DNA of 64,000 bases from an uncultured Gammaproteobacteria bacterium. GTDB lineage: Bacteria; Patescibacteriota; Microgenomatia; Levybacterales; GWA1-39-11. Position numbers and translations under genes: made by a program. The stretch is taken from the NCBI GenBank assembly GCA_964425075.1, contig CAYRKM010000001.1:395060-459059 (forward strand). The letters are read 5' to 3'. A model generated the notes under the pieces. That model was not told the DNA's origin. It did not search any database and saw nothing but the letters and a program-made list of their open reading frames with translations. How positions within the stretch are numbered: position 1 is the stretch's first letter; every line of letters begins with the position of its first letter. This document shows positions 1-22,226 of the stretch, one piece after another.

Positions 1-1
1 T

Positions 2-115
2 GGGACTGGAGATCATTTTGTTAGAGTGAAAGTAGAGATACCTAAAAGGCTTTCAGGTAAACAAAAAGAGCTTCTTAAAGAGTTTGAGGAATCATCCGGA
101 CGTGGCTGGTTTTAG
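2..115 (+). CDS. dnaJ: Chaperone DnaJ, C-terminal fragment (5' end outside window)
   Basis: Frame-2 translation ...VRVKVEIPKRLSGKQKELLKEFEESSGRGWF* resembles the DnaJ C-terminal tail. TAG stop at 113-115. Confidence 0.45.
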   Translation, partial: GTGDHFVRVKVEIPKRLSGKQKELLKEFEESSGRGWF

Positions 116-170
116 ACTGATATCTTGATTTAATACCTTCATTTCACCTACACTGTTAATAAGGAGTGCT

Positions 171-503
171 ATGGTTTTTTTATTGTATCCACTGTATCTA
201 ATAACATTTTGGTATGTCGACGTTGTAAGAGGTTTTATTAATTTTTTTATTAATTTTAATAGATATCTTGTTTCCTTATTATCCTTTTCAATTCTTTTAA
301 GAACTTTTTTTAAACCTCTTAAAAATGAATACCGAGATGGGTTAGTGTTATTTTCAATTATTGCAGGAATAATAATTAAGTTTATTATTTTATGTGCTTC
401 GGGTTTATTTATAGGTGTAGTTCTTATATTTGAAGTTTTTGTTATTATTTTTGTTCTGGTTTTACCTTTACTCGTATTTTTTTTAGGAAAGAAATTCTTT
501 TAA
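171..503 (+). CDS. Small very hydrophobic membrane protein, hypothetical
   Basis: 110-aa ORF with 3-4 predicted TM helices. It ends 1 nt before the clp-like gene, so it is likely co-transcribed. Confidence 0.4.
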   Translation: MVFLLYPLYLITFWYVDVVRGFINFFINFNRYLVSLLSFSILLRTFFKPLKNEYRDGLVLFSIIAGIIIKFIILCASGLFIGVVLIFEVFVIIFVLVLPLLVFFLGKKFF

Positions 504-504
504 T

Positions 505-2880
505 ATGAATAAATATCTTTATAACTATTATGATTTATTTAATAATACCCCTATCCAGTGGATAAGAGTAGGAGTCTTTTTAGCATTAGGAATTATTGTA
601 TATGTAAATATACACAATCCATCGGCTATCTTTTTCCTCATACCTCTTTACTTCATTTTAATTATCCAAGAACTTTTTATATTTACAAAACTTAATAACT
701 CGCTTCCACTAAATACTGTTAAAAATGAAAAAAATAATATTTTAGAAACTGTTGATTTTTCAACGCGTGCTTTATTGCAGCACAACAGTGTTTTGAATGG
801 ACTCAGAAAAATACAGGAAAAAAGTGAGGTAAAAGAATTAATTATTTTACTTGGAATGGACATACCAATTCAAGATATTTCTATTTCACAAGAGGAATTA
901 CTCAATAAAGCGTGGGAATTAGTGAATGAGTTAGATGGTAAATACATACATGCTATTGATATATATACTTCTTATTTACTTCTTGCAGATGAAAAAAACA
1001 AATTGTTGTTTGAGAAAGAAATAGAGAGAAAGGATATTATTTCAATCGTTTCATGGCTAAGGAAACAACATGGATATGATTCTCTCAAGTCTCACGAAAT
1101 GAATTTTGGAGGGAATGGAGTTTTTGACTCATTGGTGTACGGGTGGAGTGCAGAGCTTTCAAAATATGCTTTAAATTTTACAAATGAGTCAATTCGACGG
1201 GAAAATGTAAAGCCTATTGGAAGAGATAAGGAATACGACTTGCTGGTTACAGCTCTTAGTAAAAATTCATCAAGCAATGCGTTGCTCATAGGTGCTCCAG
1301 GAGTAGGGAAAACCTCACTTGTTGCACAACTTGCATTAGATTCGAATGCGGGTAAGCTTCCGTCTTTTGTATCACACAAAATTATTTTTCAACTTTTTGC
1401 TGAGCGACTTCTTGCAGGCGTAGAAAATCAAGGGGACATGGAAGCACGTTTTGTTTCTCTTTTTGAAGAACTATCTCATTCTGGGAATATTATTGTCTAT
1501 ATTCCAAATATTGAAAATATCCTCGGTGGAGGAGGAATGAATTTGGATTTATCAGGAATGCTTTCAGAATATTTAAAAAGCAACAGACTTACTATTATTG
1601 GAACTACAACAGAGGCTTTATATCAGACATATATTTATCCAAAACAAGAATTAAGGGAACTTTTTGAGAATGTGCAAGTTCAAGAGCCCGATAATGAAGT
1701 ATTACTATTTATGCTATTTGAGAAAAGAAAAGAGTTCATGAGTTTCAACGACGTTCAAATTTCGTACGATGCTCTAAAAGAAGCGCTTTCGCTTTCCTCT
1801 TCATATATTTCTGACGGTATTGCCCTTCCTGGAAGAGCAGTAAAGCTTCTTGAGGACGTTATCACTCATGCAAAAACCCATGGAGTAAAGACGATAAATA
1901 AAAGCGAAGTAAGGAATTTTGTAGAGCAAAAGGTGCACATTGTATTGAGCAAACCAACCACTGAAGAAAGCACTCAGCTTTTACATCTTGAAGAGGAAAT
2001 ACATAAAAAAATTGTTTCGCAGGAGGAGGCAGTAAAAGCAATTTCTGATGCCATGAGAAGAGTTAGAAGTGGCATGAAAGATGGAAATAGACCAATTGCA
2101 TCATTTCTTTTCTTGGGACCAACTGGTGTTGGAAAAACAGAAACCGCAAAAGCTCTTTCTTCGCTATATTTTGGCAGTGAGGACTCTATGCTTCGACTTG
2201 ATATGTCAGAATATCAAACACAGGATTCTATCGAGAGATTTTTGGGGTCAAGTAACCCTAATGAATTTGTTGATAATGTTGGTAATAAAATATTAAATAA
2301 TCCCTTCACGCTTATTCTTTTAGATGAATTTGAAAAAGCACACCCGAAAATTCTTGATTTGTTCCTTCAGATATTAGATGAAGGAAGGTTAACTGACAAC
2401 ACTGGTCGAACAATTTCTTTCACAAATGCAATAATTATCGCGACAAGTAATGCCGGAAGTGAATTAATAAGGGAAAAAATGGCGCATGCTCAAATTACAG
2501 AGGAAGAAAGAAAAAATCTAATCGATACAATTTTAAAGACCAATATTTTTAAGCCGGAACTAGTAAATAGGTTTGATGATGTAATTGTCTTTAAGCCACT
2601 TGTTCATGGAGACATCGTCTCAATTGCAGATCATTTCATGAAAGAAGTGGGGAATAAATTGTCTGAGCAGCATATTACATTAAGATACGACAAAGATGTT
2701 TTGGAATTTATTGCAAACGCTTCGTATAGCACAGAATTTGGTGCGCGTAACGTTAGGCGTTTTATAGAGCAGACGGTAGAAAATCAAATATCAACCAAGA
2801 TACTAGACCAAACACTGCCTCCGGGTGGTGTTGCAATTATTACCATTAATAGTGGTTCAATTGTTGTAACTACAAGTTGA
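505..2880 (+). CDS. Clp-type (ClpC/ClpB-like) double-AAA+ ATPase with N-terminal transmembrane anchor
   Basis: N-terminal segment has two hydrophobic helices, followed by a Clp_N-like repeat region. NBD1 Walker A is LIGAPGVGKTSL and NBD2 Walker A is FLGPTGVGKTETAKAL. NBD2 Walker B is ILLDEFEKAHP. NBD1 Walker B appears degenerate (IVYIPNIEN). Confidence 0.8.
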   Translation: MNKYLYNYYDLFNNTPIQWIRVGVFLALGIIVYVNIHNPSAIFFLIPLYFILIIQELFIFTKLNNSLPLNTVKNEKNNILETVDFSTRALLQHNSVLNGLRKIQEKSEVKELIILLGMDIPIQDISISQEELLNKAWELVNELDGKYIHAIDIYTSYLLLADEKNKLLFEKEIERKDIISIVSWLRKQHGYDSLKSHEMNFGGNGVFDSLVYGWSAELSKYALNFTNESIRRENVKPIGRDKEYDLLVTALSKNSSSNALLIGAPGVGKTSLVAQLALDSNAGKLPSFVSHKIIFQLFAERLLAGVENQGDMEARFVSLFEELSHSGNIIVYIPNIENILGGGGMNLDLSGMLSEYLKSNRLTIIGTTTEALYQTYIYPKQELRELFENVQVQEPDNEVLLFMLFEKRKEFMSFNDVQISYDALKEALSLSSSYISDGIALPGRAVKLLEDVITHAKTHGVKTINKSEVRNFVEQKVHIVLSKPTTEESTQLLHLEEEIHKKIVSQEEAVKAISDAMRRVRSGMKDGNRPIASFLFLGPTGVGKTETAKALSSLYFGSEDSMLRLDMSEYQTQDSIERFLGSSNPNEFVDNVGNKILNNPFTLILLDEFEKAHPKILDLFLQILDEGRLTDNTGRTISFTNAIIIATSNAGSELIREKMAHAQITEEERKNLIDTILKTNIFKPELVNRFDDVIVFKPLVHGDIVSIADHFMKEVGNKLSEQHITLRYDKDVLEFIANASYSTEFGARNVRRFIEQTVENQISTKILDQTLPPGGVAIITINSGSIVVTTS

Positions 2881-2913
2881 GAAAGGTGCTGGGATTTTAT
2901 ATCCTTATTAGAT

Positions 2914-3912
2914 ATGCAAATTGCTTTTTTTGGATTAGAACAATGGGAAAAGGAATATTTCGATAAAGAATTAAAAGGAAATCAACTTTTTTTCTTTGAA
3001 ACCTCACTTAATGACACAAATGATAATCTTGAAAATATTGAGGGATTAATTGTTTCCATACACTCTGAGATTAAAAGTGAAATTCTTGCCAAATTTCCTC
3101 GTCTTAAATTTATTGCCACAATGTCAACTGGATATGATCATGTTGATTTACTCGAGTGTGGAAAAAGAAATATTGTGGTATCAAATGTCCCATCATATGG
3201 GGAAGCAACTGTTGCCGAACACACCTTCTCGTTGATTCTCACAATTTCAAGACGAATTATTGAATCAGTTGAACGAGTAAAAAAAGGAGAATTTTCACCC
3301 GAAGGCTTAACGGGGTTTGAGTTGCGGGGAAAGACTTTGGGAGTAATTGGTGTTGGAAGCATTGGAAGTCATGTAATAAAAATTGCAAAAGGATTTGGAA
3401 TGAATGTTCTCGCATACAAGAGAACACCAGATTTGATGCTTGAGAGACAATTGGGATTTAAATTTGTGGAGCTAGATATTTTATATAAACAATCAGATAT
3501 AATTTCTCTTCACATTCCTTATACAAAGGAAACTCATCATTTTGTAAATTCTCATTCATTTGAAATTATGAAGGATGGGGTTGTTGTGATTAATACAGCA
3601 AGGGGCTCTCTTATTGACAGCGTTGCGCTTTTGCAGTCACTAAATAGCGGGAAAGTAAAAGCAGCAGGACTTGATGTATTGGAGGAGGAGCCATTATTAT
3701 TGGAGGAAAAGGATTTGTTGTCAAAGCAATTTGATAAAGAAAAAATTATGTCTCTTCTTCAGGACCATATGCTTATATCTCATCCTCATGTTTTAATTAC
3801 ACCACATAATGCATTCAATAGTACTGAAGCACTTAACAAAATTATAGAAACAACTCTAGAAAATATTACGGCATTTTCTTCCGGAGCCCCCATAAATGTA
3901 GTAAGTAATTAG
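2914..3912 (+). CDS. D-isomer-specific 2-hydroxyacid dehydrogenase (D-lactate/phosphoglycerate dehydrogenase family)
   Basis: NAD-binding motif GKTLGVIGVGSIGSHV. Catalytic R (NTARGSLID), E (LDVLEEEP) and H (ITPHNAF) are present. Confidence 0.8.
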   Translation: MQIAFFGLEQWEKEYFDKELKGNQLFFFETSLNDTNDNLENIEGLIVSIHSEIKSEILAKFPRLKFIATMSTGYDHVDLLECGKRNIVVSNVPSYGEATVAEHTFSLILTISRRIIESVERVKKGEFSPEGLTGFELRGKTLGVIGVGSIGSHVIKIAKGFGMNVLAYKRTPDLMLERQLGFKFVELDILYKQSDIISLHIPYTKETHHFVNSHSFEIMKDGVVVINTARGSLIDSVALLQSLNSGKVKAAGLDVLEEEPLLLEEKDLLSKQFDKEKIMSLLQDHMLISHPHVLITPHNAFNSTEALNKIIETTLENITAFSSGAPINVVSN

Positions 3913-7746: not shown

Positions 7747-10700
7747 TTAATTCTTGTAGTCTTTATGGTAGACAATATAAAACACAACGGGGATGAAAAA
7801 CAACATGATAATTCCTGAAAATGAAAGTCCTGCAATAATTGCTCCACCCAGGCCACGCCATAGGGGGTTTGAAAGGGAAATTGGAATAAGTCCCACAATT
7901 GTCGTAAATGAGCCTAAGAAAACCGGTTCAAGTCTGCTTGCAGCTCCATCTGCAATTGCTTCCTTGAAGGGCATATGAGCGCTCAGATTTCTATTAAATT
8001 TGTCGACTAAAAACATTGCGTGAGTGACCACAATTCCAAAAAGTGAAAGAATCCCGATTAATGCCGGAAATGAAAGCGGAGTGCCGGTAAGAGCAAAGAC
8101 AACAAGAACCCCTGCAACGGCAACCGGAATAATAAGCATCACGATAACGGCTTTTCTGTAGCTTCTAAATTGGACTACCATGGTCGCCAAAATAAGTATT
8201 CCGGCAAGCATCATTGCCTGCAGAATTGACGCGACGGATTTTTGATTTTCCTCATTTGCTCCCCCCGTTTGATACGAATATCCTTCGGGAAGATTGAGAC
8301 CGTCAACGTACTTCAAAAGCTTACTATTTGCTTCACTTACCGAATAACCGACCGATACTCCCGAGCTTACTGAAATAGTTCTTTTTGTATCCAAATGTGT
8401 AATTGATGTCGGGTTAGTTTCAAGAACCAAGTCTCCCAAAGACAGCAGTGGAACATAAGTATTGTTGGTTGTCGGAATAGCCAACCGACCCAGATCTTCA
8501 GGGCTTTGTGTATCTGTGTTCATGCGGAAAGTTATGTCTTGTGATTCTTTTTGATCAAATTTTACGCTTTTGACCGTAAACCCGGTTGTAAAAGTTCTCA
8601 TCCAAAGTCCTAATGTTTCATAAGAGACATTTTCTTTGGTAATTTTTGAATGATCCGGTACAAAAGTCAGCTTTGACGTTCCGGGATTGATGGACTTGGT
8701 GACATTTATTATTCCCGCCTGCTTACTCAAAAAGCCTACAATTTTATCTGCGTACTGATCAAGTTTTGTCAGATCGTCACCGAGAAGTTGGACCTGTACC
8801 TCGGCCCCCGCAGGTGGCCCGCCCGATTGCTCAATAATTGTTATTTTTCCATCAACTTTTATGGTTTTGATTTTTTCCCGGAGGTTTTCTGCAATTTTCA
8901 GTGAGTCAATTTTTCTCTTATTTTTTTCAGGGAGTGCCATGGTGTAGAGAACCAGATTCGATCCGGATTTAAAATCTTGAGAGCCGGCATCAATTCCACG
9001 TCCAATCTCCGATGTTACGTATTCGATACCCGGAGTTTTTCTCAAAAATTCCTGAAGTCTCAAGCCATTTGTGGTTGCTGTATCAGTATTTGTACCGCTT
9101 GGAAGTTCTAAATTTACATACAATTGATCCCCTTCACTTTTGGGGAAAAATTCATTGGTAACAAATCCGAATGGCACTAATAAATAGGCAAAAACTGAAA
9201 AAATTATAACGATTCCGATAACTTTTTTTCTGGCACTTTTCGAGTTTAAAATCCGTAGAATGAGCCTTTTGTAATATACCGCAATATGCTCAATATCAAT
9301 AAGTCTTTCATTAAATCTACCTGCATATGATTTTCCGGTAGCTATTAAATTCTTACCAACAAGATTGTTGATCTTTTCTGACAGTGTTGATCTTATTCGG
9401 ATGGCAATAAATCCTAAGATTAAAAATAGAATAAGAATTAAAGGAAAGAACGGGTTTTCTCTAAAAAGCGTCAGCAACAAATAGACACAAAGAAGTGCTC
9501 CAATAAGCTTGAGTAAGATAACGACCCTTCTTGGAACTTGCAATTTCAAAATAACAATCATAAGCGGAATTGTGATGAGGACTGCAATTGCTGTTGAAGC
9601 ATAAAGGGTTGTTGCAACAACGATTGGAATAGTTTTGATAAACTCACCGATAATACCAGTTGCTATCAAAAGAGGCAGAAATGCCCATGCTGTAGTAATT
9701 GTTGTACTCCAAATAGGCACAATAAGATCTCGCCATACAAGAAGACCGGTTTGTTCCGGGGTGAATTTCCGGGTTCTAAAGTACGAAGTCATTCCCGTTA
9801 CAACAACAATTGTGTCATCAACCAGAAGACCCAATGCTAAAAGAAGCGAGAAGAGTGTCAAAAAATTAAGAGACAGGCCGGCTGCATTGATAACGGTAAA
9901 AGTCACAAGAAATGTGAGTGGAATTGTCAAAACCGCAATAAGGGCTTGACGGATTCCAAGAAAAATTAGAAATGTTATAAAAACCAAAATAAGCGTATCG
10001 CGGAAGCTTTCAGTCAGATTTCCGAATTCTTCATCTATCAGTTTTGAGGAATCGGTAATGGTCAAAATTTCGAAGTGTTCATGATAAGGCTTGACTGCAT
10101 TTTCAGCAATAAGCCGCATTTTTTTGACCGCATTATCAATTGTTGCGGTACTATTTTTATAAACATAAAATGTTGCTACTTTTGAAGGTTTTGTATTCTC
10201 ATTTGCGATGAACGACTCTTGGATACCCGGTTTGACTGTTTCAAAAACGTTAGCAATATCTGAAAGCTTTACTTGATTGTCGTTAACAACAAGCGTTGTA
10301 TTTCTTAAATTTTCAATTGATGAAATTGAGGAGTTGACTCCCAGTGGAAATGATAAGTCGGAAGTTGTGATATTTCCTGCCGGATAGGAATTGAGTAAGC
10401 TATTTATTTTTTGAGAAAGAACAATCGGGTTAATATTGTTATTTGCTACTTTTTCAGGATCTGCAAGAATTTGAATTTCCTGCTCTTCAAGCCCTGAAAT
10501 GGTAACCCGGTCAACAATAGAATCATCCTCAAGTTTTTCCTTTAATATTCTGGAAAACCTCAGTAAAGAAGCAGGGTCTTCACCGCGTATTGAGAAAACC
10601 CATACGGGTTGGTCTTCAAAATCAAAGCGCTTTACAAAAGGATCTTTTGCCTCATTTGGCAAAGTATTGACAGAGTCCACCGCAGATTTCATATCCGCCT

Positions 10701-11067
10701 CTGCTTTTTCGGGAGTTGTGGACGCACTGAATTGGGCAATTATTGTCGATACCGATTCATTGGAAATAGAATTAAGTGTTGAGAGTCCCTTCGTTCCTTT
10801 AATTGCATCTTCAAGTGGATTTGTTATCAGATCTTCAACATCTTTCGGGCTTGCTCCGGGAAGAACAGTTGTAACAGAAACAATTGGTAATTTTACTTCA
10901 GGATTGAGTCTTCTTGGCAAAGTAATAAAACTTGTGATACCTGCAACAACAATGATAAGTATGAGCAAAATAACAATTCTTATATTTGTTAAGAATTTTG
11001 CTTTAAATGTACTAAGAAGTTGAGGATCAAACTTTAGACGTGATAAATAGGAATTTTCGGATTTCAT
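7747..11067 (-). CDS. RND-family efflux transporter permease (AcrB/HAE1-like)
   Basis: 1106 aa with 12 TM helices. Conserved LALGLLVDDTIVVV motif and two large periplasmic loops. Confidence 0.8.
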   Translation of the reverse strand: MKSENSYLSRLKFDPQLLSTFKAKFLTNIRIVILLILIIVVAGITSFITLPRRLNPEVKLPIVSVTTVLPGASPKDVEDLITNPLEDAIKGTKGLSTLNSISNESVSTIIAQFSASTTPEKAEADMKSAVDSVNTLPNEAKDPFVKRFDFEDQPVWVFSIRGEDPASLLRFSRILKEKLEDDSIVDRVTISGLEEQEIQILADPEKVANNNINPIVLSQKINSLLNSYPAGNITTSDLSFPLGVNSSISSIENLRNTTLVVNDNQVKLSDIANVFETVKPGIQESFIANENTKPSKVATFYVYKNSTATIDNAVKKMRLIAENAVKPYHEHFEILTITDSSKLIDEEFGNLTESFRDTLILVFITFLIFLGIRQALIAVLTIPLTFLVTFTVINAAGLSLNFLTLFSLLLALGLLVDDTIVVVTGMTSYFRTRKFTPEQTGLLVWRDLIVPIWSTTITTAWAFLPLLIATGIIGEFIKTIPIVVATTLYASTAIAVLITIPLMIVILKLQVPRRVVILLKLIGALLCVYLLLTLFRENPFFPLILILFLILGFIAIRIRSTLSEKINNLVGKNLIATGKSYAGRFNERLIDIEHIAVYYKRLILRILNSKSARKKVIGIVIIFSVFAYLLVPFGFVTNEFFPKSEGDQLYVNLELPSGTNTDTATTNGLRLQEFLRKTPGIEYVTSEIGRGIDAGSQDFKSGSNLVLYTMALPEKNKRKIDSLKIAENLREKIKTIKVDGKITIIEQSGGPPAGAEVQVQLLGDDLTKLDQYADKIVGFLSKQAGIINVTKSINPGTSKLTFVPDHSKITKENVSYETLGLWMRTFTTGFTVKSVKFDQKESQDITFRMNTDTQSPEDLGRLAIPTTNNTYVPLLSLGDLVLETNPTSITHLDTKRTISVSSGVSVGYSVSEANSKLLKYVDGLNLPEGYSYQTGGANEENQKSVASILQAMMLAGILILATMVVQFRSYRKAVIVMLIIPVAVAGVLVVFALTGTPLSFPALIGILSLFGIVVTHAMFLVDKFNRNLSAHMPFKEAIADGAASRLEPVFLGSFTTIVGLIPISLSNPLWRGLGGAIIAGLSFSGIIMLFFIPVVFYIVYHKDYKN

Positions 11068-11082
11068 CTGATTGTGTAAGGA

Positions 11083-12576
11083 TTAGTTAACTTTGCGCAC
11101 TGTGTCTCCGCTGATAACTGTTCTTGAAAGAATGATCTGGTTTCCATTTGCAAGTCCCCGTTCAATCTGCGCATATTGTCCGACTATTTGACCAAGAATG
11201 ACTTTTTTGGCAGATGCTTTTCCATTTTCAATTACAAAAACATACGACCCGGTGTTACTTTGGTAAATTGCATCAAGCGGTATGAAGGGAACAGCGGTTG
11301 AGGTCGAGGCATATCCAACTGGAAGCTCAACTGTCACATATTCGTTGTCCGAAACGTCATTTTGGTAAGTATCCGGAATATCAAATATTACAGAATAGAG
11401 TGATCCGTCTGTTGCCTCAGTTGAAATATACAGGGGAGCGGCAGAATATGATTTTCCATTGATATCAATTTCGGACGCATCAATGCTTGATAATTTTTGA
11501 GCAATTTCACGGGGGACTTTAACAACCGCTTTTAATTTTTGTGCTCCATGAATAACTGCAATTGGGGTTCCGGGGTTGACCGACTCGCCGGGATTTACAA
11601 ATATCCGCTCAACTACTCCCGCAAAGGGTGCAGCAGGATACATCGTTGCTTCTTGAATTTGTGCAAGTTTTAATTGCAAGGAGCTTACTTCAAGAGACAA
11701 GGAAAGCGCCTTTTCCTGAATATCTAATTGTTTTTGTGCAACTTCACGTCCAAGATCTGAAAGCTGTGCCGGCGGTTTGTCTCCTGCTGCTTGATATTCT
11801 GATGCCCTTTGTGCTGTCTGAAGCTGGTTGACAGCCGATTGGTATTGGGAAATGATCTGCTTGGTTTGTAAAATTTGCGTGTCATTTTGACCGTTTTGAT
11901 TGTTTGCTTCTAATGCATTTAGCGTTGAATTGAGGCTTCCAACGATTTCTTGGTTGAGGCTTAAAAGGGATTTGGTATCTTCAGTAGACTTAGAAGTAAT
12001 ATCCCTCAATTGATCTGCATTTGCATCAGATCTATCTGCCAAATCTCTTTGTTTTTTAATAAGGTCTTTTTGCAGGTCATATGTTGTTTTTGCGTTTTGA
12101 TAGGTGGAAGAAGCAATTTCCCGTTGAACGCCGGGAGCATTACCACCCTGATAATTTGTCGCGAGAGAAACAATTACGTATCCTTTGCCAACTTCTTGCC
12201 CTTCAACCGCATTTACACTTGCAACAATTCCCGGTGTTTGGGCAACTATTTTTATAATTCCACTTTTTTCAATTTGTGCTTGAACCTTTAGGGTGGGGGC
12301 CGAACCAATTGAATAAACCTTTACGTCTTTTACCAGTGGGGGAAGAGCTTTTTCGGCTTTTGGCTTTCTTATAATTGAACCGGCGATGATAAGTATTAGC
12401 AAAGCTCCAAGAATTGCAAGAAAGGCAGTCATTGGTTTTTTATCAACAAGGCGAATGCTCTTTCGAATATTTTTGCGGAATTTCAATTCTATATTTTTAA
12501 ATATATATTTGCCTAAAATTCTTCCTTTTTTTAATGTTTTTTGTAGTTTTGATGTTTTTTTGTATCGCTTCGTCAT
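11083..12576 (-). CDS. Efflux periplasmic adaptor (membrane fusion protein, HlyD-like)
   Basis: N-terminal TM anchor, long coiled-coil segment and C-terminal beta-barrel-like region. Lies immediately upstream of the RND gene on the same strand. Confidence 0.7.
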   Translation of the reverse strand: MTKRYKKTSKLQKTLKKGRILGKYIFKNIELKFRKNIRKSIRLVDKKPMTAFLAILGALLILIIAGSIIRKPKAEKALPPLVKDVKVYSIGSAPTLKVQAQIEKSGIIKIVAQTPGIVASVNAVEGQEVGKGYVIVSLATNYQGGNAPGVQREIASSTYQNAKTTYDLQKDLIKKQRDLADRSDANADQLRDITSKSTEDTKSLLSLNQEIVGSLNSTLNALEANNQNGQNDTQILQTKQIISQYQSAVNQLQTAQRASEYQAAGDKPPAQLSDLGREVAQKQLDIQEKALSLSLEVSSLQLKLAQIQEATMYPAAPFAGVVERIFVNPGESVNPGTPIAVIHGAQKLKAVVKVPREIAQKLSSIDASEIDINGKSYSAAPLYISTEATDGSLYSVIFDIPDTYQNDVSDNEYVTVELPVGYASTSTAVPFIPLDAIYQSNTGSYVFVIENGKASAKKVILGQIVGQYAQIERGLANGNQIILSRTVISGDTVRKVN

Positions 12577-12722
12577 AGAATGATGTAGATTGTACTATTT
12601 TTGTCGCATACAATCAACTAATTTTCAGGCGAAAAGCACTATTAAATACTGGAGAAATATTTTTTGCAATAGGATGAGTGAAACCTTGTGTTAGGTGACA
12701 GGATCTTGAGTTTCACAGATTC

Positions 12723-13934
12723 TCATTCATATCTTAATGCGTCAATTGGAGAAAGTTGCGCAGCTCTTCTTGCAGGATATAGACCAAAAACAATACCCAC
12801 GAGCGTTGATACTCCCACAGCAATTATTATTGCAGGAATGCTTACTACAAAGGGAATTCCAGCGACTAGAGATACAGCGTATGCTCCAGAAATACCCAAA
12901 ATTATTCCAATAAGTCCTCCAATAAGCGTCATCACTACGGCTTCTACTAAGAATTGAGTTAAGATATCTTTTTGTTTGGCGCCAATTGCTTTTAGTAAAC
13001 CAATTTCCTTAGTCCTTTCAGTAACAGATACAAGCATTATATTCATAACACCAACACCGCCTACAACTAAAGAAATTCCTGAGATGCCGGCTATCATGGC
13101 AGTCAGCAGTCCAGTTATGGTTTGTACAGTTGTTAGAATGTCTTGTGCGCTTGAGATTCGAAAATCATTTTCGTCTCCTTCCCCTAATTCATGTCTGTCT
13201 CGAAGGAGTGCTTCTACATCATTAATTGTTTGATTTATGGCATTTTCATCATAAACACTAATATCAATTTCCTGAAGTTTTTCTTCTCCAAGAATTTGTT
13301 TTGTAACAATATTTATTGGTATAAAAATGGAATTGTTAATAAATCCTCCAGCAAGAGCACTTGATGAATCGATAACTCCAGTCACTCTAAAAGTTCTATT
13401 ATTTATGCGAATCGTTTCCCCAACCGCCTGAGAATTTTCACCAAAAAAAGTTTTAACAACATCAGATCCTATTACTGCAATTCTTTCTCCCGCCACTTCT
13501 TGCTCAGCAGTAATAAATTCTCCTTCAATTACATCAGGGCGTAGGATTTCAAGCGCTTCAGGTGTTGAGCCATATATCAACAGATCATCAGTTTCACCAT
13601 TTGCAGTAACTTTTGATGAAGCCATGGCAAATGGGGCTACGCTTTTTATATTGGTTAAAGAGGAGTCATTTTCTATAGCCTTAAGATCATCAAATGTTAA
13701 TGCTGTTGACCCTGCGAAAGTACTAATTTGACTACTCCCTGGGTTGATTTGAAAATAATCTGTTCCAAACGAAGAAAGCTCATTTGTTATAAACGCGACA
13801 GCTCCTTGTCCAATTGAGTAAATAAGAATTACTGACGTAATACCGATGATAATTCCTATCATCGTAAGAGAAGTTCTTAGAACATTGTTTCTTAAAGCCT
13901 GTATTGCGCTTTTGAAAATTTCTTTATATTGCAT
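12723..13934 (-). CDS. ABC transporter permease, FtsX/MacB-type
   Basis: N-terminal TM, large periplasmic domain and C-terminal 3-TM FtsX-like bundle. Confidence 0.8.
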   Translation of the reverse strand: MQYKEIFKSAIQALRNNVLRTSLTMIGIIIGITSVILIYSIGQGAVAFITNELSSFGTDYFQINPGSSQISTFAGSTALTFDDLKAIENDSSLTNIKSVAPFAMASSKVTANGETDDLLIYGSTPEALEILRPDVIEGEFITAEQEVAGERIAVIGSDVVKTFFGENSQAVGETIRINNRTFRVTGVIDSSSALAGGFINNSIFIPINIVTKQILGEEKLQEIDISVYDENAINQTINDVEALLRDRHELGEGDENDFRISSAQDILTTVQTITGLLTAMIAGISGISLVVGGVGVMNIMLVSVTERTKEIGLLKAIGAKQKDILTQFLVEAVVMTLIGGLIGIILGISGAYAVSLVAGIPFVVSIPAIIIAVGVSTLVGIVFGLYPARRAAQLSPIDALRYE

Positions 13935-13974
13935 ACGATCAGTTATTAGTTGTTAGGAATAGTTATTAGTTTGA

Positions 13975-14667
13975 TCATTTCTTTTTATCAAGGACAACTT
14001 TTCCATCCACAAGCCTTATTACCCTTTTGGCATATGAGGCAATATCTTCTTCGTGTGTAATAAGTATGATAGTTCTTCCATCTTTATTAATCCCTTTAAG
14101 GAATTTCATGATTTCATGAGAAGTTTTGCTGTCTAAATTTCCAGTTGGTTCGTCTGCAAGTATTATTGAAGGATTCATGACAAGAGCCCTGGCAATTGCT
14201 ACTCTTTGGATTTGTCCTCCAGAAATGTGATTTGATAAGTTGTTTGCCTTCTCCTCAATCCCTACTAGTTTTAAAGCATCCATTGCTCGCATGTGTCGCT
14301 CTTCCGATTCAACTCCTGCATACATCATGGGTCTTTCTACATTTTTTAGAACCGTGGTTCTTGGAAGTAAATTAAAGGCTTGAAATACGAACCCAATTTC
14401 TCGATTGCGTATTTCTGCAAGTTGGTCCTCAGTGTAGCTTGAGATGTTCTTGCCTCTTAGTAAATACTTTCCTCCTGATGGTGTATCAAGCGCACCCAAT
14501 ATATGCATAAGTGTTGATTTTCCACTTCCTGAGGGGCCCATGATAGCAACGAAATCACCCTCATCTATAGTTAGAGTAATACCATTTAATGCATTGTAGT
14601 ATTCACCTTCTGCTAGGGGGTATTTTTTTGTTATGTCGGTAAGTTTGATGAGGGCATTTTTAGACAT
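13975..14667 (-). CDS. ABC transporter ATP-binding protein (MacB/LolD-type)
   Basis: Walker A GPSGSGKST, signature LSGGQIQRVAIARAL, Walker B ILADEPTGNLD. Confidence 0.9.
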   Translation of the reverse strand: MSKNALIKLTDITKKYPLAEGEYYNALNGITLTIDEGDFVAIMGPSGSGKSTLMHILGALDTPSGGKYLLRGKNISSYTEDQLAEIRNREIGFVFQAFNLLPRTTVLKNVERPMMYAGVESEERHMRAMDALKLVGIEEKANNLSNHISGGQIQRVAIARALVMNPSIILADEPTGNLDSKTSHEIMKFLKGINKDGRTIILITHEEDIASYAKRVIRLVDGKVVLDKKK

Positions 14668-14669
14668 TA

Positions 14670-15935
14670 TTAATTTCCAAATAATCCAGGACGCTTTAAC
14701 TGCTCATTAGATAAAGTTGTAATAATTTCTTGTCCCTCTGTCAGTCCTTTCAATATTTCAGTTCTATCTTCTCCTCGGACTCCTGTAATCACGGGTACAT
14801 ATTTTATTCCATCTTTAGATTTTTTATCAGGCACTCTTACCGCCTTTCCTCCCTGGTATGGTTTGATTGCTGAATTTGGAACACTTAGTACATTTTTTAC
14901 TTCTTTTGTAATTATCCTTGCGTCTGCATTCATGCCTGAACGTAGTGCCCCATCGGTATTTTGAATATTTAAATATACGTTGTAACTAATAACTCCTCCA
15001 TTGTCTGTTCCAATTTCATCAACTCGACTAACTTCTGCCCTATATTTTTTATTTAGGACCGCACTTACATCAACTTCTGCTTTTTGTCCGGGTTTTATTT
15101 TTGCAATATCAGTTTCACTAAGTGCAATTACTATTTCACTAGCAAGTTCGCCATTAGAAATTAGAAGTACTGGAGATAGGGTTGTAGTGATTGATGCAGC
15201 AGTGGCTTTTACTGGACTACCTTCCCTAATTGATAGATTTGATATTTTTCCTGCAACAGGGGATTTTACAATTGCGTTTTGTGTTGCTTGATACAAAAGC
15301 CAAGTGGAAGAGACTTGGGCTTGTCCTTGTGCAATTGCGGTTACTTGATCTTTATATTTCTTTTCAGCTGCTAACCATTGGTCTTTGGCAATCTGAAATT
15401 CTGCTGCCGTTCTGTTTTGTTCATTTGGGGTGTCATCTCCATTTTCATATGTGCCATTTGTTGCAAGATTTCTAAAAGTATCCCATTCATCATACATTGT
15501 AGCTCTTAACGTATTAGCGCTTGACTGGGCTGCATTAAGTGTTGCTTGGGCTGCAAGATAATTTGCATATGCCGCATTGGCTTGTTGTTCAGTTGCTGAG
15601 CTTTGTACGACAAAAAGTTCCTGACCCTCAACAACGGAGTCTCCATTTGATATATATGATTCTGTAACAACACCATTGGTTGGAGAATATACTTCTGTGG
15701 TGCCGCTTGCCACAATATTTCCAGTTTCAGTAACTTCTTCTGTGATATCCGTAATTTCTGTTTTTGCGGTTGTGTAAGGTGGCTTTTTAGTAAGATTCCC
15801 AATTATATTTGAAACAATAACCGCTCCAATAATAAGTAGGACAATAATAATTATTTTTCTCTTCAAAGATGCTTTGAGAAAATAACTCCAAGCTCTTGTT
15901 GGAATTGAAAGTAGTTTTTTAATTTTAGGTTTCAT
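14670..15935 (-). CDS. Efflux periplasmic adaptor (MacA/HlyD-like) of the ABC pump
   Basis: TM anchor followed by coiled-coil and barrel domains. Start likely at MKPKIKK (15935). First gene of a three-gene operon. Confidence 0.7.
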   Translation of the reverse strand: MKPKIKKLLSIPTRAWSYFLKASLKRKIIIIVLLIIGAVIVSNIIGNLTKKPPYTTAKTEITDITEEVTETGNIVASGTTEVYSPTNGVVTESYISNGDSVVEGQELFVVQSSATEQQANAAYANYLAAQATLNAAQSSANTLRATMYDEWDTFRNLATNGTYENGDDTPNEQNRTAAEFQIAKDQWLAAEKKYKDQVTAIAQGQAQVSSTWLLYQATQNAIVKSPVAGKISNLSIREGSPVKATAASITTTLSPVLLISNGELASEIVIALSETDIAKIKPGQKAEVDVSAVLNKKYRAEVSRVDEIGTDNGGVISYNVYLNIQNTDGALRSGMNADARIITKEVKNVLSVPNSAIKPYQGGKAVRVPDKKSKDGIKYVPVITGVRGEDRTEILKGLTEGQEIITTLSNEQLKRPGLFGN

Positions 15936-16040
15936 ATACATATGTATGATTATATTTCGTTTGGATTTATATAGCTAGTAATTATAACTCATGGTTTTCA
16001 ATAAAAAAGAGATAATAGTGCTTTTCTATTGCCTTATGCC

Positions 16041-17478: not shown

Positions 17479-18729
17479 ATGACAAATTTAAATAAACAAA
17501 TTTTCTCAGTAATTGCAGCTGGAACTATGGTTCTTAACATAGCTACTCCTGCATTTGCTGGAACCACTATTGAACTTTCAGGAAATGGTACTGAATCTGA
17601 TAACAAGGCTATTGTTAACCAGAACAGTAACACAACTGTTACACAATCCAATGTAGCTGATATCAAAAATAATGTTGATATTAAATCTAACACTGGAGGT
17701 AATGATGCTAATAGCAACACCGGAGGAAACGTAAAAGTAGAAACTGGAGATGCTACTTCAAATGTTACCGTTAAAAACACCGTTAACAGCAATGCTGCTA
17801 ATGTTGATTGTTGTGATACAGGAGATACTAACGTTCTAATTAGTGGAAATGGTGAAGATTCAGATAACTTTGTTAAATTGAATCAGAACCACGACACTAC
17901 ATTAACTCAAAGAAATGAGGCTAATGTAGAAAATGATGTTGACGTAGATTCTAACACCGGAGATAACGACGCAGAAGATAATACAGGTGGAGATGTTTCT
18001 ATCGAAACTGGAGATGCTAATGCAACCGTTAAAGTTGGCACAACTGCTAACGCTAACTGGGCACGTATTGGTGGATCTTCAAACGGCGGATCTCTTACAG
18101 CTAGAATCACTGGAAACGGAGAAGACAGTGACAACAAAATCAAATTAAACAATGGTGGAGATGTCACTCTAACTCAATGGAACCTTGCTGATATCGAGAA
18201 TGACGTAGATGTTGATTCCGACACCGGATACAACGACGCAAATGACAACACCGGAGGAGATGTAATGATCGAAACTGGAGATGCTGACACTGATGTAACC
18301 GTAGATAATATGGTTAACTTCAATGCAGCAGATGTTAACTGCGGATGTCTTCTTGACGATGTACTCGCAAAGATCTCTGGAAACGGAGAAGACTCAGACA
18401 ACAAGATCATTGCTAACCTTGGTGGAGACACCACGGCTACACAAGCTAATGAACTTGATTGTGCAGGACATCACGACAGCTGTGCTGACGTTGACGTAGA
18501 CGGCGACACTGGACACAATGATGCAAACGATAATACAGGGGAAGTTGATGCTGACTCTGATCCAAGCATTGAAACCGGAGACGCTGACGCAACCGTAAAA
18601 GTAAACAACTCAGGAAACAGCAATGCTTTCGGAGTTGATATGGATGATTTGGACCTTCCAGATTTTGGAGGACTTCACTTCAGCTTTAGCTTTGACTTAG
18701 GAGATCTTCTTGATCTTTTAAACGGTTAA
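17479..18729 (+). CDS. Secreted tandem-repeat protein (4 x ~90-aa repeats), paralog family member A
   Basis: Strong SD gaggaggtg. Signal peptide ...ATPAFAG. Four repeats with SGNGEDSDN...TQ.N.A.I.NDVDVDS.TG.NDA.DNTGGDV.IETGDA and terminal CC/CxC motifs. Acidic C-terminus. Confidence 0.8.
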   Translation: MTNLNKQIFSVIAAGTMVLNIATPAFAGTTIELSGNGTESDNKAIVNQNSNTTVTQSNVADIKNNVDIKSNTGGNDANSNTGGNVKVETGDATSNVTVKNTVNSNAANVDCCDTGDTNVLISGNGEDSDNFVKLNQNHDTTLTQRNEANVENDVDVDSNTGDNDAEDNTGGDVSIETGDANATVKVGTTANANWARIGGSSNGGSLTARITGNGEDSDNKIKLNNGGDVTLTQWNLADIENDVDVDSDTGYNDANDNTGGDVMIETGDADTDVTVDNMVNFNAADVNCGCLLDDVLAKISGNGEDSDNKIIANLGGDTTATQANELDCAGHHDSCADVDVDGDTGHNDANDNTGEVDADSDPSIETGDADATVKVNNSGNSNAFGVDMDDLDLPDFGGLHFSFSFDLGDLLDLLNG

Positions 18730-18824
18730 TTGGGAATTAAGTAGGGTGCTCTAGCTAGCACTTCGGCAGGAACACCCTACGAAACCCAAAATAGAATTAA
18801 GAATTAAAAATACACAAAACATAT

Positions 18825-21047
18825 ATGAATAACAAAAAAACAAGAAAATTACTGTCCACAGTATTAATACTAGTTATATTTTCAGCAAAACTTGCTTTTC
18901 CAATTGGTGCTTTAGCTCTTGATGCTCCAACTGCGCCGAGTGCACCTACTGCTCCAAGCGCTCCATCTGCTCCAACTGCGCCGAGTGCACCTACTGCTCC
19001 AAGCGCTCCATCTGCTCCAACTGCGCCAACTTCTCCCCCAGCACCTACTGCGCCAGTTGCTCCAACTGCGCCGAGTGCACCTACATTAGTAACTCCAACA
19101 CCAACACCCACAGAGACTACACAGGCGCAGCAACAATCAGCACCAAAAGAAAGCAGCAATGATATTCAAAACCAAGAAAATGAATCAAATACACAAGGTG
19201 GAAATGTGGGGGATACAACAATTGACACGGGAGATGCTACAAGTAACGGTACAATTTCAAATGTAGGAAATACAAATACAGCCTCAACTCCTGGAGGAAG
19301 TGGTGGAGGAGCCACAGTTGTAAATAGCGGAAATGGGGAGGACTCAACAAACACTGGAGCAGTAATAAGTTCAGATACTTCAACCACTAACCAGACTAAT
19401 TCAGCAACTATTAATAACACAATGAATCAAGGAGCAACAAGCGGAAATAACATTTCTGATAGTAATGTTGGAAATACAACCATTAATACTGGGGATTCAA
19501 ACACTAGCGGAACTATTATTAATGCAGTGAATACAAATGTTGATGGAATTGCAGTTGCCGAGTTCAATGTAGTAGATGATCATATTGGGGACATAATTCT
19601 CGACTTCGGAAATTCAAATTGTATCGCAGGATGCGGAGGAGAAACAGCAGTTATTAATACTGGAAATGGGGAGGACTCAACCAATACTGGAACTGTTGAC
19701 TCTACAACTACAGATAACACTTTCCAAACTAACACAGCAGGAATTGTAAATGACATGATTCTTGATTCTAACGCTGGAGACAATTCAGCATCTCACAATA
19801 CGGGTGGAGACAGCATTATAACAACGGGCGATGCTAATACGGCAGCAAATGTAATGAATTTGGTTAACAATAATATTGCAGGGAATGTGATATTGGGAGT
19901 CGTTAATATATTCGGAGACCTTATTGGAGATATCATTTTGCCAGAAAATCCATTTGCAAATTGTTCAACTTGTGTTGCAAATAACACAACAGTCGCAAAT
20001 ACAGGAAATGGCGAAGGTTCTACAAATGAAGCTACATTTACTAGCACCACAAATGATGGAACATTTCAATACAATGACGCAAGCATTCAGAATAACATAA
20101 TAAGCGATGCTAATTCAGGAGATAATTCAGCAAGCAAGAATACTGGAGGCAGTAGCAATATCGAAACTGGAGATACTAATACTGAGGTAGGAATATTGAA
20201 TATCGCAAACATGAATCTTGCGGGTGGGGATTGGTGGTTAGTAATCGTAAACGAAGCAGGACAATGGATCGGAAAGATATTGGGTGGAGACGGAAGCAAC
20301 GTAGCAGGTTCTAATGGACTTGAATTTATAGTAGATCCACTTACTGGGGCAGTAACAGCAAAGAATTCAGGAAATGGTGAAGGCTCAACCAACACAGCAG
20401 CAGTTAACCAGACAAACAATTCAACAACCAACCAAAGCAACACTGCAGCAATTACAAATAATCTTGACCTATCTGCTAATACCGGTGGAAACAGTACTAG
20501 TCACAACACTGGTGGTAACAACTCAATAGTAACTGGGGATGCTCACATAATCGCAAACATAGTTAACTTTGTTAACAATAATATAACTGGCAATGGTAGG
20601 CTCTTTGTAACAGTAGTGAATGTATTTGGAAGTTGGATGGGAGATTTGGTAACTCCTGGACAACATAAGGAAACAGCATCTGCACAAAATGGAGTAGGTG
20701 GATCAAACGGCTCAAATAATTCAACATCAACAGTTCAAGGTTCATTCGGAAGTTCGTCTAGCCTTGTTCAAGCAGAGAATGTGCTTTCACAAATCACAGG
20801 AAACGGCAACAATAACACTCTTGCATACGGAAGCGTTCAGGGTACAAACGACTCAAAACCACAAAATGATGCTACTGTTGCAAGCGTAGGGCAAGACGAC
20901 TCTGCGGCAGTAGCAGATAAGAATATCAATATTAATTTAGCATGGTTCCTTCTCTTAATTCCAGGGATGGGATTTGTGCTACTCGCAAAAAAATCGTTTG
21001 CTCCAGTTTCAAGCCTGGCGCTAAGAGGTATACATTTGTTTCTTTAA
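18825..21047 (+). CDS. Secreted tandem-repeat protein with PT/PS-rich linker, paralog B
   Basis: Signal peptide. (APTAPSAPS)n linker. Repeats contain NTGNGEDSTN, NTGGxSxIxTGDxNT and IFGDLIGDIILPE segments. C-terminal hydrophobic segment + KK. Confidence 0.8.
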   Translation: MNNKKTRKLLSTVLILVIFSAKLAFPIGALALDAPTAPSAPTAPSAPSAPTAPSAPTAPSAPSAPTAPTSPPAPTAPVAPTAPSAPTLVTPTPTPTETTQAQQQSAPKESSNDIQNQENESNTQGGNVGDTTIDTGDATSNGTISNVGNTNTASTPGGSGGGATVVNSGNGEDSTNTGAVISSDTSTTNQTNSATINNTMNQGATSGNNISDSNVGNTTINTGDSNTSGTIINAVNTNVDGIAVAEFNVVDDHIGDIILDFGNSNCIAGCGGETAVINTGNGEDSTNTGTVDSTTTDNTFQTNTAGIVNDMILDSNAGDNSASHNTGGDSIITTGDANTAANVMNLVNNNIAGNVILGVVNIFGDLIGDIILPENPFANCSTCVANNTTVANTGNGEGSTNEATFTSTTNDGTFQYNDASIQNNIISDANSGDNSASKNTGGSSNIETGDTNTEVGILNIANMNLAGGDWWLVIVNEAGQWIGKILGGDGSNVAGSNGLEFIVDPLTGAVTAKNSGNGEGSTNTAAVNQTNNSTTNQSNTAAITNNLDLSANTGGNSTSHNTGGNNSIVTGDAHIIANIVNFVNNNITGNGRLFVTVVNVFGSWMGDLVTPGQHKETASAQNGVGGSNGSNNSTSTVQGSFGSSSSLVQAENVLSQITGNGNNNTLAYGSVQGTNDSKPQNDATVASVGQDDSAAVADKNININLAWFLLLIPGMGFVLLAKKSFAPVSSLALRGIHLFL
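18925..19085 (+). repeat. 45-bp tandem repeat (2 perfect + 1-2 degenerate copies) encoding the PT-linker
   Basis: gctccaactgcgccgagtgcacctactgctccaagcgctccatct is repeated head-to-tail. Confidence 0.85.
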
Positions 21048-21051
21048 AATC

Positions 21052-22173
21052 ATGTTTAAGAAGGCAGTAATGTTCATAATCTGCCTGCCCATAGTTCACT
21101 TCGCACTTGCATTTCAAGTTAGAGCAGAAGAGATTAACCTTTCCGTTACTGGTAATGGTGAGGGTTCGTCAAATGCTACACAAGTTCAGAATAATACTAC
21201 TACGACAGTTACCCAAACCAACACAGCGGATATAAATAATAATGTAAATACGAATACTAACACTGGAGGAAATAATGCAACTGATAATAACGGAAATGCT
21301 TCAATTCAAACAGGCGATTCGACAACTTCTACTACTATTAATAATGAAAATATCAATTCAAATTCAGCAAATATTAATCCATGCTGCAATGGTAATTCTG
21401 TAAATATTGAGATTTCAGGAAATGGTAGTGATTCCAACAATTTAGTTAATGCTTCAAATAATAATACAAACAACATCTACCAAACTAACTACGCAAATAT
21501 CTACAACAACGCAATGACAAATTCTAACACCGGATACAACAGCGCAGACAGCAATATTGGAAATGTATACATAAAGACTGGAAATATTTCAGCAACTACA
21601 AAAATCAATAACAAAAATATTAATAATAGCTATGCTGCAGGAGGTAGCGTTGATTCCTCTTTTTATGCTGTTATAAAAAATAATGGAGAAGATTCTGAGA
21701 ACAAAATTATTTTCAACAAGGATAATGAAAATAATCTAATTGTTACAAATATTGCAAACATATCAAATAATGTAGAGCACAATTTGAATACTGGATACAA
21801 TAGTGCAAATGGAAATTTGGGTGACGTTGCAATAATTACAGGAGATATTACAAGCGATGTTGAAATCAATAATGAAAATATAAATAGTAGTACTGCAATT
21901 CTTCCATGCTTAACATGCGAAAAACCAGAAGATCCTGAAACTCCACCTACTAACCCACCAAGCACACCACCTACATCAGTTGGTGGTGGAGGTGGTGGTG
22001 ATGGAAGATCAGACGGTAGGTCTGATGGAAAAGGTGGTTCGGTATTGGGTGCTATGTTGCCTGCAACAGGACTTCCTTTTATGTTCTACGCTACGCTTCT
22101 TCTCTTCTTCCTTTTCCTCTCAGGTATCTTTCTGCGTTATCACTCCGGAGTTTCTCCTCCAGTTGTAGCTTAG
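21052..22173 (+). CDS. Secreted repeat protein with C-terminal LPATG sortase sorting signal, paralog C
   Basis: Signal peptide. SGNGEGSSN/NTGGNNA...IQTGDST repeats and CC/CxxC motifs. C-terminus LPATG + hydrophobic stretch + RYHSG basic tail. Confidence 0.8.
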   Translation: MFKKAVMFIICLPIVHFALAFQVRAEEINLSVTGNGEGSSNATQVQNNTTTTVTQTNTADINNNVNTNTNTGGNNATDNNGNASIQTGDSTTSTTINNENINSNSANINPCCNGNSVNIEISGNGSDSNNLVNASNNNTNNIYQTNYANIYNNAMTNSNTGYNSADSNIGNVYIKTGNISATTKINNKNINNSYAAGGSVDSSFYAVIKNNGEDSENKIIFNKDNENNLIVTNIANISNNVEHNLNTGYNSANGNLGDVAIITGDITSDVEINNENINSSTAILPCLTCEKPEDPETPPTNPPSTPPTSVGGGGGGDGRSDGRSDGKGGSVLGAMLPATGLPFMFYATLLLFFLFLSGIFLRYHSGVSPPVVA

Positions 22174-22183
22174 TATTTTAAAC

Positions 22184-22212: not shown

Positions 22213-22226
22213 GGTTTAAGCATAGT

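Follow-up and report, generated by a model that had tools for sequence, protein, structure and literature searches.

The Clp/Hsp100 ATPases are textbook soluble threading machines, and the occurrence of one behind a pair of predicted membrane helices raises the question of what such a protein might do when it is held at the membrane and only one of its two ATPase rings has kept its catalytic residues. The gene that poses this question lies near the start of a 64,000-nucleotide window (the whole stretch of DNA analysed here; positions 395,060 to 459,059 of the forward strand of contig CAYRKM010000001.1, assembly GCA_964425075.1), a low-GC (~37%) chromosomal stretch that carries rpoB, S12, S7, nusA, infB, and pnp and whose source genome is placed among the Levybacterales of the Patescibacteriota. 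It encodes a 791-residue ATPase and is directly preceded by an open reading frame (ORF) for a 110-residue membrane protein; the ATPase represents a branch of the Clp/Hsp100 superfamily not described before, from the ultra-small Patescibacteria, also known as the candidate phyla radiation (CPR). To our knowledge, no bacterial Hsp100 that is itself embedded in the membrane and tied to an obligate membrane partner has been recognised, and full-text literature searches turned up no account of a membrane-anchored Clp/Hsp100 in CPR bacteria. The locus is laid out as follows, with the evidence for each feature given in brackets.

171..503, + strand: small membrane partner ORF, 110 amino acids (aa) (ORF list, hydropathy, conservation)
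501..507, + strand: gene junction TAA-T-ATG (read directly from the sequence)
505..2880, + strand: membrane-anchored Clp/Hsp100 paralogue, 791 aa (ORF, Pfam, AlphaFold2 (AF2), Foldseek)

The TAA stop codon of the small ORF ends one base ahead of the ATG of the ATPase gene, and this one-base spacer suggests translational coupling of the two products. A first-pass annotation of the window had already described the small ORF as translationally coupled upstream of the ATPase gene and had suggested that the two proteins may act together. The suggestion is supported by comparison with other genomes. A pattern scan for the partner family across 185,579 species genomes recovered 174 loci, and genomic context was examined in the best 80 of these 174. 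In 78 of the 80, the small ORF is followed within a few bases by the start of a membrane-Clp homologue on the same strand; the remaining two loci break off ~300 bp past the small ORF. The commonest junction is a 4-bp overlap (31 loci), and the others have gaps of a few bases. The same order is found well beyond the core family: the six distant transmembrane (TM)-bearing Clp proteins examined (P0080, P0087, P0081, P0106, P0091, and P0077), which show 29-32% identity and come from Parcubacteria-type, Berkelbacteria, and other Patescibacteria, all have an ORF of 120-133 aa abutting their start. None of these small ORFs matches Pfam, and they share with the window partner the motifs [FW]-W-[YH] and [TN]-[LF]-F-x-P, a basic residue at the position of K70, and a proline at position 99. 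In at least three places the two genes are naturally fused (P0067/71/72/73, L069, and the distant P0229). Strict gene order, distant pairs, and independent fusions together support a physical and functional pairing, and judged from these sequence comparisons the small ORF is an obligate partner of the membrane Clp. A promoter and terminator scan of positions 1-3100 gave no signal relevant to the operon that exceeded the level expected from shuffled sequence.

The partner is built from an amphipathic N-terminal half, an invariant 11-residue loop (T45-F-F-K-P-L-K-N-E-Y-R55), and a 49-aa hydrophobic stretch in which K70 and P99 are invariant and E88 is near-invariant. Neither Pfam nor NCBIfam holds a family for it or for nine of its distant homologues. 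When 1.84e9 representative proteins, clustered at 50% identity, were searched by profile, the core partner family occupied only 68 clusters, nearly all of them of 105-130 aa, and the one 832-aa member is a fusion to a Clp ATPase; the profile of the wider superfamily reached at least 1019 clusters, all labelled ‘hypothetical’ and all from Patescibacteria-type sources. The fusions also bear on membrane topology. In each of them just one more hydrophobic helix comes after the complete partner; the end of this helix (‘FFED..KLKPKK’) matches TM2 of the unfused ATPase, and TM1 has thus been dropped; since the AAA+ rings are necessarily cytoplasmic, the single helix places the C-terminus of the partner outside the cell. 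If the hydrophobic stretch of the partner is a two-helix hairpin, its invariant basic loop would lie outside, contrary to the positive-inside rule; alternatively, aa 58-80 may form an interfacial amphipathic helix (with a polar stripe of S62-G66-K70-S77), in which case only aa 84-106 would span the membrane.

In its fold and the order of its domains the ATPase is a member of the Clp/Hsp100 superfamily. Pfam matches AAA at aa 260-370 and AAA_2 at aa 529-692 (8.8e-47), followed by ClpB_D2-small (1.1e-19), so that the protein has the two tandem AAA+ modules, the second of the AAA_2 plus D2-small type, of the class I fold, and its closest solved relatives in phmmer searches are ClpB and ClpC (~1e-102). 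An AF2 monomer model, computed from a 63-sequence family alignment, has a mean predicted local distance difference test score (pLDDT) of 84.8 and a predicted TM-score (pTM) of 0.73, and in Foldseek it matches ClpC and ClpB protomers (E-value 5e-53; TM-score ~0.8 across both rings, normalised to the target). Membership in ClpB, ClpA, ClpK, ClpG, and ClpV was considered and rejected, every NCBIfam score lying far under its cut-off; the ClpB equivalog TIGR03346 gives 440.1 bits against a cut-off of 1232.1, and the ClpA equivalog TIGR02639, which aligns from aa 126, gives 409.6 bits against 993.15. There is no M-domain, as residues 404-532 of ClpB have no counterpart in the alignment and the query advances there only from 458 to 466, and the ATPase is collinear with ClpA, itself without this domain. 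The ClpP-docking [ILV]-G-[FL] loop, the presence or absence of which had been raised in the first-pass annotation, is also absent; the segment between sensor-1 and the arginine (Arg) finger is 50 aa, a ClpB-like length, and a scan of 120 proteins, including ~75 core-family relatives, found among the latter one loose-pattern match (P0051, VGI) and no true [ILV]-G-[FL].

Lacking both an M-domain and a ClpP-docking loop, the ATPase can be taken neither for a ClpB that works with DnaK nor for the partner of a protease, and ClpP was accordingly rejected as its associate. A scan of the genome that covered the 64-kb window alone found no CLP_protease domain. A distant patescibacterial contig (L087) carries clpP (PF00574, L087:1-93) some 2-2.4 kb upstream of the pair (L087:2103-5029), and ClpP therefore exists in at least one genome with the pair, though the ATPase has no docking loop. 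The name ‘ATP-dependent Clp protease ATP-binding subunit ClpC’, given to relatives by automatic JGI annotation, is misleading for the membrane ATPase. The description ‘ClpC/ClpB-like’ in the first-pass annotation holds for fold and superfamily but does not extend to membership, as the protein does not qualify as ClpB, as ClpA/ClpC/ClpE, or as a canonical class I unfoldase.

The features that set the protein apart begin at its N-terminus, where three segments precede the first AAA+ module.

547..693, + strand: N-terminal transmembrane hairpin, aa 15-63 (hydropathy, AF2, conservation)
694..1074, + strand: divergent all-helical N-domain of eight helices, aa 64-190 (AF2, hhalign, Foldseek)
1105..1182, + strand: family-specific linker motif, F201-GG-x-G-x-FD-xx-V-x-GW214...Y221..NFT226 (conservation)

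The two hydrophobic helices noticed at first pass are borne out by Kyte-Doolittle hydropathy, which flags aa 16-63, and by the AF2 model, which places helices at residues 15-34 and 39-63 with a pLDDT of ~90. Most core relatives likewise have a hydrophobic segment within residues 1 to ~70 (N-truncated entries are among the few that do not), and the N-terminus is conserved throughout the family in M1, Y9, R21, and the hairpin itself, within which R21 is invariant and E56 near-invariant. The succeeding N-domain is probably a very divergent Clp_N-type fold. The earlier description of a Clp_N-like region is weakly supported: hhalign against canonical Clp N-domains gives 71% probability (E 3.7e-5), Pfam Clp_N (PF02861) has no match on the ATPase, and in Foldseek the top matches are nearly all N-domains of ClpC, ClpA, and Hsp104, none of them significant (best E 0.11). 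Two of the distant membrane Clp proteins (P0077 and P0080; L090:2501-5338 and L085:4001-6772) have a CxxC...CxxCxGxG zinc-ribbon, of a ClpE/ClpX/DnaJ-like kind, ahead of their TM segments, and their N-domains match Pfam Clp_N, only faintly in P0077. Between the N-domain and the first nucleotide-binding domain (NBD1) lies the linker, in which G203, G213, and W214 are invariant and G205, Y221, and T226 near-invariant; it is disordered in the AF2 monomer model (pLDDT 53-64) and may serve as a docking site.

The first ring departs from the canonical Clp plan at several motifs.

1201..1944, + strand: NBD1 pseudo-ATPase module, aa 233-480 (phmmer alignment to ClpB, residue counts)
1291-1317, + strand: NBD1 Walker A, G263-APGVGKTS, present (motif table)
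1414-1437, + strand: NBD1 pore loop, KYR replaced by E307-N-Q (phmmer alignment to ClpB)
1489-1518, + strand: NBD1 Walker B, DE replaced by P334-N335 (phmmer alignment to ClpB)
1651-1665, + strand: NBD1 Arg fingers, RR replaced by E385-L386, LERRF becoming LRELF (phmmer alignment to ClpB)

The phmmer alignment pairs IIVYIPNIEN of the window protein with VILFIDELHT of ClpB at high posterior probability, in agreement with the first-pass observation that the NBD1 Walker B does not follow the hhhhDE pattern. Residues were counted at the motif positions in 68 full-length relatives. At the Walker B aspartate position these have proline (57), glutamine (8), glutamate (2), or serine (1), and never aspartate; the glutamate position is asparagine in 58, as is the pore-loop tyrosine (Tyr) position in 54. 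All soluble Clp proteins recovered by the same search have the NBD1 DE. The ATPase thus carries in NBD1 neither a catalytic Walker B nor a trans-acting Arg finger. The Walker A lysine (K269) is kept in 62 of the 68 and has been lost in some branches, where the motif reads GTGVTT, GSGRxx, or, in P0106, DDDEEVALD. Because K269 is mostly kept while the Walker B acids and Arg fingers are gone, NBD1 of the window protein probably binds nucleotide and very probably cannot hydrolyse ATP, as had been suggested at first pass. Across the family, the pattern of substitutions in NBD1 is that of progressive decay to a putative pseudo-ATPase.

The second ring has been kept in a very different state.

2002..2589, + strand: NBD2 large domain, aa 500-695, the only competent ATPase (residue counts)
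2116-2139, + strand: NBD2 Walker A, GPTGVGKT (sequence motif)
2245..2283, + strand: NBD2 pore-loop position, with GSSNPNEFVDNVG in place of GAPPGYVGYEEGG (phmmer alignment, motif table)
2311-2334, + strand: NBD2 Walker B, LILLDEFE (sequence motif)
2563-2580, + strand: NBD2 Arg finger, R689 (residue counts)
2590..2877, + strand: C-terminal D2-small domain, aa 696-791, with sensor-2 G746-A-R748 (Pfam, with the E-value given above)

The catalytic residues K544, D607, E608, N649 (sensor-1), R689, and R748 are each kept in 68 of 68 relatives, so that the earlier statement that the NBD2 motifs are intact is correct for catalysis; it fails for the pore loop, as GYVG is absent from the ATPase and GSSNPNEFVDNVG stands there instead. 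This segment is the least conserved of the domain, with a mean pairwise identity of 0.29 versus 0.64 for the large domain, and in other relatives it reads Y-E-E, is deleted, or, in one subgroup, is shortened to ‘LLLGEGIVDKI’. Neither ring, then, has its aromatic pore loop (K-Y-R in NBD1, G-Y-V-G in NBD2), an element critical for processive unfolding in Clp/Hsp100 proteins. In the window protein F588-V589 sits two residues downstream of the canonical Tyr, and such an aromatic-aliphatic pair (FV, or YV, FI, or YI) is confined to this protein and its closest relatives, P0002-P0004. Some residual grip on substrates may be provided in the window protein by F588-V589.

The family is confined to the Patescibacteria, its core being the Levybacteria, and relatives that bear a lineage name are called Candidatus Levybacteria or Levyibacteriota. 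Many records of species-representative metagenome-assembled genomes with a Levybacteria-type locus (L005-L084) are titled ‘uncultured Gammaproteobacteria bacterium’, and a few ‘Candidatus Woesearchaeota archaeon’, ‘Methylomirabilota’, or ‘Limnocylindrales’; these titles are probably placeholders or wrong names. When both NBDs were used to build a neighbour-joining tree, all 25 soluble, motif-intact Clp proteins fell on one side of a single bipartition and all 57 TM-bearing proteins, with 2 N-truncated ones, on the other, as would be expected if the membrane form arose once. A soluble paralogue that keeps DE, RRF, and GYVG is present in the same genomes, and its retention indicates that the membrane form is an addition and not a replacement. 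The soluble, otherwise canonical Clp paralogues (L001:2690-5599; P0085-P0119; and the upstream clp genes of L024, L029, L031, L049, L058, L064, L076, and L081) have histidine for the NBD1 pore-loop Tyr (AGASHRGEFE), and the same set carries low-complexity insertions of up to ~100 aa between the NBD2 sensor-1 and Arg finger and C-terminal tails rich in glutamine and proline.

The neighbourhood of the pair ties it to known chaperone genes in a good part of the family. Upstream on the same strand, dnaK and/or dnaJ is found in 23 of the 80 loci, often in the order dnaK-dnaJ-small-mClp-nusA-infB, and an intact clp in 21, directly adjacent in about half of these and otherwise with a gene between; at least one of the two occurs in 43, which bears out the link to protein quality control drawn in the first-pass annotation. 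In L016, L035, L062, L066, L068, and L078 a subtilase of ~900 aa with Peptidase_S8 and SdrD_B domains stands, on the same strand, between the soluble clp and the pair. The neighbours in the sub-lineage of the window are T2SSE upstream, on the opposite strand, and downstream a 2-hydroxyacid dehydrogenase, a polyprenyl synthase, and a holin-4-like protein. In a related genome a 587-aa AAA protein adjoins the pair on the opposite strand (L001:8438-10201, - strand). No CIRCE heat-shock operator was found in the 780 kb of window and related loci, with up to 3 mismatches allowed.

The interpretation that we favour, while holding it no more firmly than its negation, is that the pair forms a membrane-embedded proteostasis machine driven by NBD2 and equipped with a dedicated membrane subunit. 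The large subunit is a paralogue of the soluble Clp/Hsp100 chaperone that has gained an N-terminal membrane hairpin, and six copies of it would assemble into a ring-shaped complex at the cytoplasmic side of the membrane. Its NBD1 ring would bind ATP as a static assembly scaffold, as in the D1 ring of PEX1/PEX6, leaving the NBD2 ring as the sole motor. The partner would pack on the hairpin by way of intramembrane charges, K70 and E88 of the partner meeting R21 and E56 of the ATPase, and hydrolysis in NBD2 would remodel or release membrane-associated or membrane-integral clients, making the pair the membrane arm of a dnaK-dnaJ-clp proteostasis set.

Several points weigh against this interpretation. 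All of the function in it is read from sequence and genomic context; the assignment of the N-domain to Clp_N is weak; the helix parity of the fusions clashes with the positive-inside rule for the partner; and chaperone genes are not adjacent to the pair in the window’s own sub-lineage. Above all, neither ring has kept its canonical aromatic pore loop, and some members have no NBD2 loop at all, a loss that weighs against ordinary threading. Since the canonical Tyr loops are not conserved, the grip on substrates would be non-canonical or weak, substrate threading by the membrane Clp is doubtful, and the unfoldase or extraction machine of the first-pass annotation is not supported as written. The disappearance of aromatic loops from both rings, with the hypervariability of the NBD2 loop, can also be read as favouring a non-threading switch of a Torsin-like or mechanotransmission type, in which NBD2 would drive a change in the partner (gating, assembly or disassembly, or signalling) and the partner would be the effector. 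The invariant 11-residue loop, K70, and E88 of the partner exceed what a passive anchor needs, the fusion parity puts its C-terminus outside the cell, and the Torsins provide a precedent (PMC5425593). We nevertheless judge such a switch unlikely, if worth serious attention, as the NBD2 Arg finger, sensor-2, and ring-forming elements are invariant, like those of a processive Hsp100 and unlike those of Torsin, the N-domain, to which substrates and adaptors bind in Clp proteins, has been kept, the F588-V589 pair persists in the window protein and its nearest relatives, and the chaperone-gene neighbourhood points to protein clients. A broader and tentative version, to which we allow a minor but slightly larger share of belief, would make the pair an ancient, Patescibacteria-wide AAA+ device for mechanotransmission or remodelling in the envelope of these episymbiotic ultra-small cells and not a classical unfoldase. 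Its mechanism would be one unseen among bacterial Hsp100 proteins, the one active ring, without gripping loops, transmitting force into or through the partner, the invariant loop of which may then face the outside of the cell.

The intact soluble clp (DE, RRF, GYVG) upstream on the same strand in 21 of the 80 loci brings in another alternative, namely that the membrane protein is a docking subunit that recruits the disaggregase activity of its soluble paralogue by co-assembly or stacking. The two belong to the same superfamily and the membrane form has kept its oligomerisation elements, and inactive FtsHi or PEX6-type subunits are known to pair with active ones. Such an arrangement appears improbable: most genomes, those of the window lineage included, show no linkage between the two genes, the membrane form and the soluble form are only ~30-38% identical, which is low for mixed rings, and the membrane Clp has a fully competent NBD2 of its own that a mere anchor would not need. 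It is more improbable still that the pair is an export or import motor on a dedicated pore, comparable to PTEX, where HSP101, a ClpB-like protein, is docked on the pore formed by EXP2, with polypeptides being fed through a channel of hairpins and partners. Six hairpins and six partners could form a large TM assembly coaxial with the AAA+ channel, and the window lineage has type IV pilus and type II secretion system genes next to the pair, but the gripping pore loops that a translocation motor requires are lost, the linkage to T2SSE is seen in a single sub-lineage and involves the opposite strand, and no conserved cargo or signal accompanies the pair. Least credible of all, with a probability close to nil, is an artefact, either an ordinary soluble ClpC/ClpB with a mis-called start, as the ClpC name from JGI annotation might imply, or a decaying pseudogene. 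The reading frame is intact and NBD2 strongly constrained, the partner gene recurs in 174 species-level genomes with the membrane Clp downstream in nearly all of those examined, and mis-calling and pseudogene decay are refuted by the conserved N-terminus (M1, Y9, R21, hairpin) and by the conservation of the substituted NBD1 motifs themselves (P-N in 57-58 of 68 relatives).

The proposed proteostasis machine shares features with several characterised AAA+ systems. ClpC, ClpB, and ClpA have the same tandem AAA+ modules, D2-small domain, and helical N-domain, with ClpA also having no M-domain and ClpB no ClpP loop; the membrane Clp differs from them in its hairpin and obligate small membrane partner and in the loss of the NBD1 Walker B, Arg fingers, and pore Tyr and of the NBD2 GYVG. 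FtsH and Msp1/ATAD1 are the functional model for membrane-protein quality control and likewise combine an N-terminal TM anchor with a cytoplasmic AAA+ ring. This likeness is a functional analogy only, as both belong to the classical clade, with just one AAA+ module, in which the aromatic pore loop is conserved, and have no such small partner, and FtsH further has an M41 protease domain where the membrane Clp has no peptidase domain. In PEX1/PEX6 the D1 domains bind nucleotide and are without Walker B acids and Arg fingers, D2 is the motor, and the complex is recruited by a membrane protein (PMC5447069). PEX1/PEX6 with PEX26/Pex15 therefore resembles the pair in its inactive first ring, motor second ring, and dedicated membrane protein, whereas it differs in belonging to the classical AAA+ clade (not HCLR/Clp), in being soluble and recruited, in having intact D2 pore loops, and in being eukaryotic. 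Torsins are Clp/Hsp100-related, membrane-associated proteins without aromatic pore loops that depend on TM cofactors (PMC5425593). Torsin with LAP1/LULL1 is thus alike in its lost pore loops and transmembrane partner, but it has a single AAA+ module and is luminal and eukaryotic; it has no Arg finger of its own, the cofactor supplying one (R689 is universal in the membrane Clp), and the cofactors are degenerate AAA+ folds and not small polytopic proteins. ClpI of the Actinomycetota, a third Clp class defined bioinformatically, is a comparable case of a lineage-specific double-ring Clp paralogue recognised from sequence, but ClpI is soluble, its ATPase and translocation motifs and M-domain are intact, and some members keep the ClpP-binding LGF (PMC10149685). 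By analogy, PEX1/PEX6-PEX26 would be the closest working likeness, for its ring asymmetry and membrane partner, with the membrane Clp belonging to neither the PEX nor the Torsin family.

The remainder of the window holds further features of note. A single-module AAA protein (362 aa, PF00004) is encoded at 33465-34553 (+ strand). A resistance-nodulation-division (RND) pump of the AcrB type (1106 aa), two HlyD-like adaptors, a MacB/FtsX permease, and an ATP-binding cassette (ABC) ATPase occupy 7747-15941 (- strand); the lineage is usually viewed as having no outer membrane, which makes genes of the tripartite-efflux type notable there. Three ORFs without Pfam matches (416, 740, and 373 aa) followed by a sortase lie at 17479-22852 (+ strand), and a 740-aa Baseplate_J-like protein followed by a second sortase at 46881-49881 (+ strand); the products of both sortase-linked clusters may be surface or pilus proteins processed by sortase. 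Positions 24605-25498 (- strand) encode a protein of 297 aa with calcium-binding nonapeptide repeats of the RTX type (HemolysinCabind, 2.4e-20). Searches for tRNA, tmRNA, and Rfam families (at the gathering threshold) found none in the 64-kb window, despite its dense housekeeping genes.

An immediate gain from recognising the pair is in annotation, as the partner, with no Pfam or NCBIfam entry, is called a ‘hypothetical protein’ and the ATPase is labelled ClpC. The family is widespread, the core partner being present in at least 174 species-level genomes of the Patescibacteria and the wider superfamily in at least 1019 clusters. The envelope biology of these bacteria is largely obscure, and reduced genomes such as theirs rarely keep paralogues without reason. 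The family amounts to a natural experiment in which one ring of an Hsp100 has been silenced and the pore-loop Tyr freed from selection while the other catalytic site stays invariant, and it thereby bears on how far AAA+ function needs threading.

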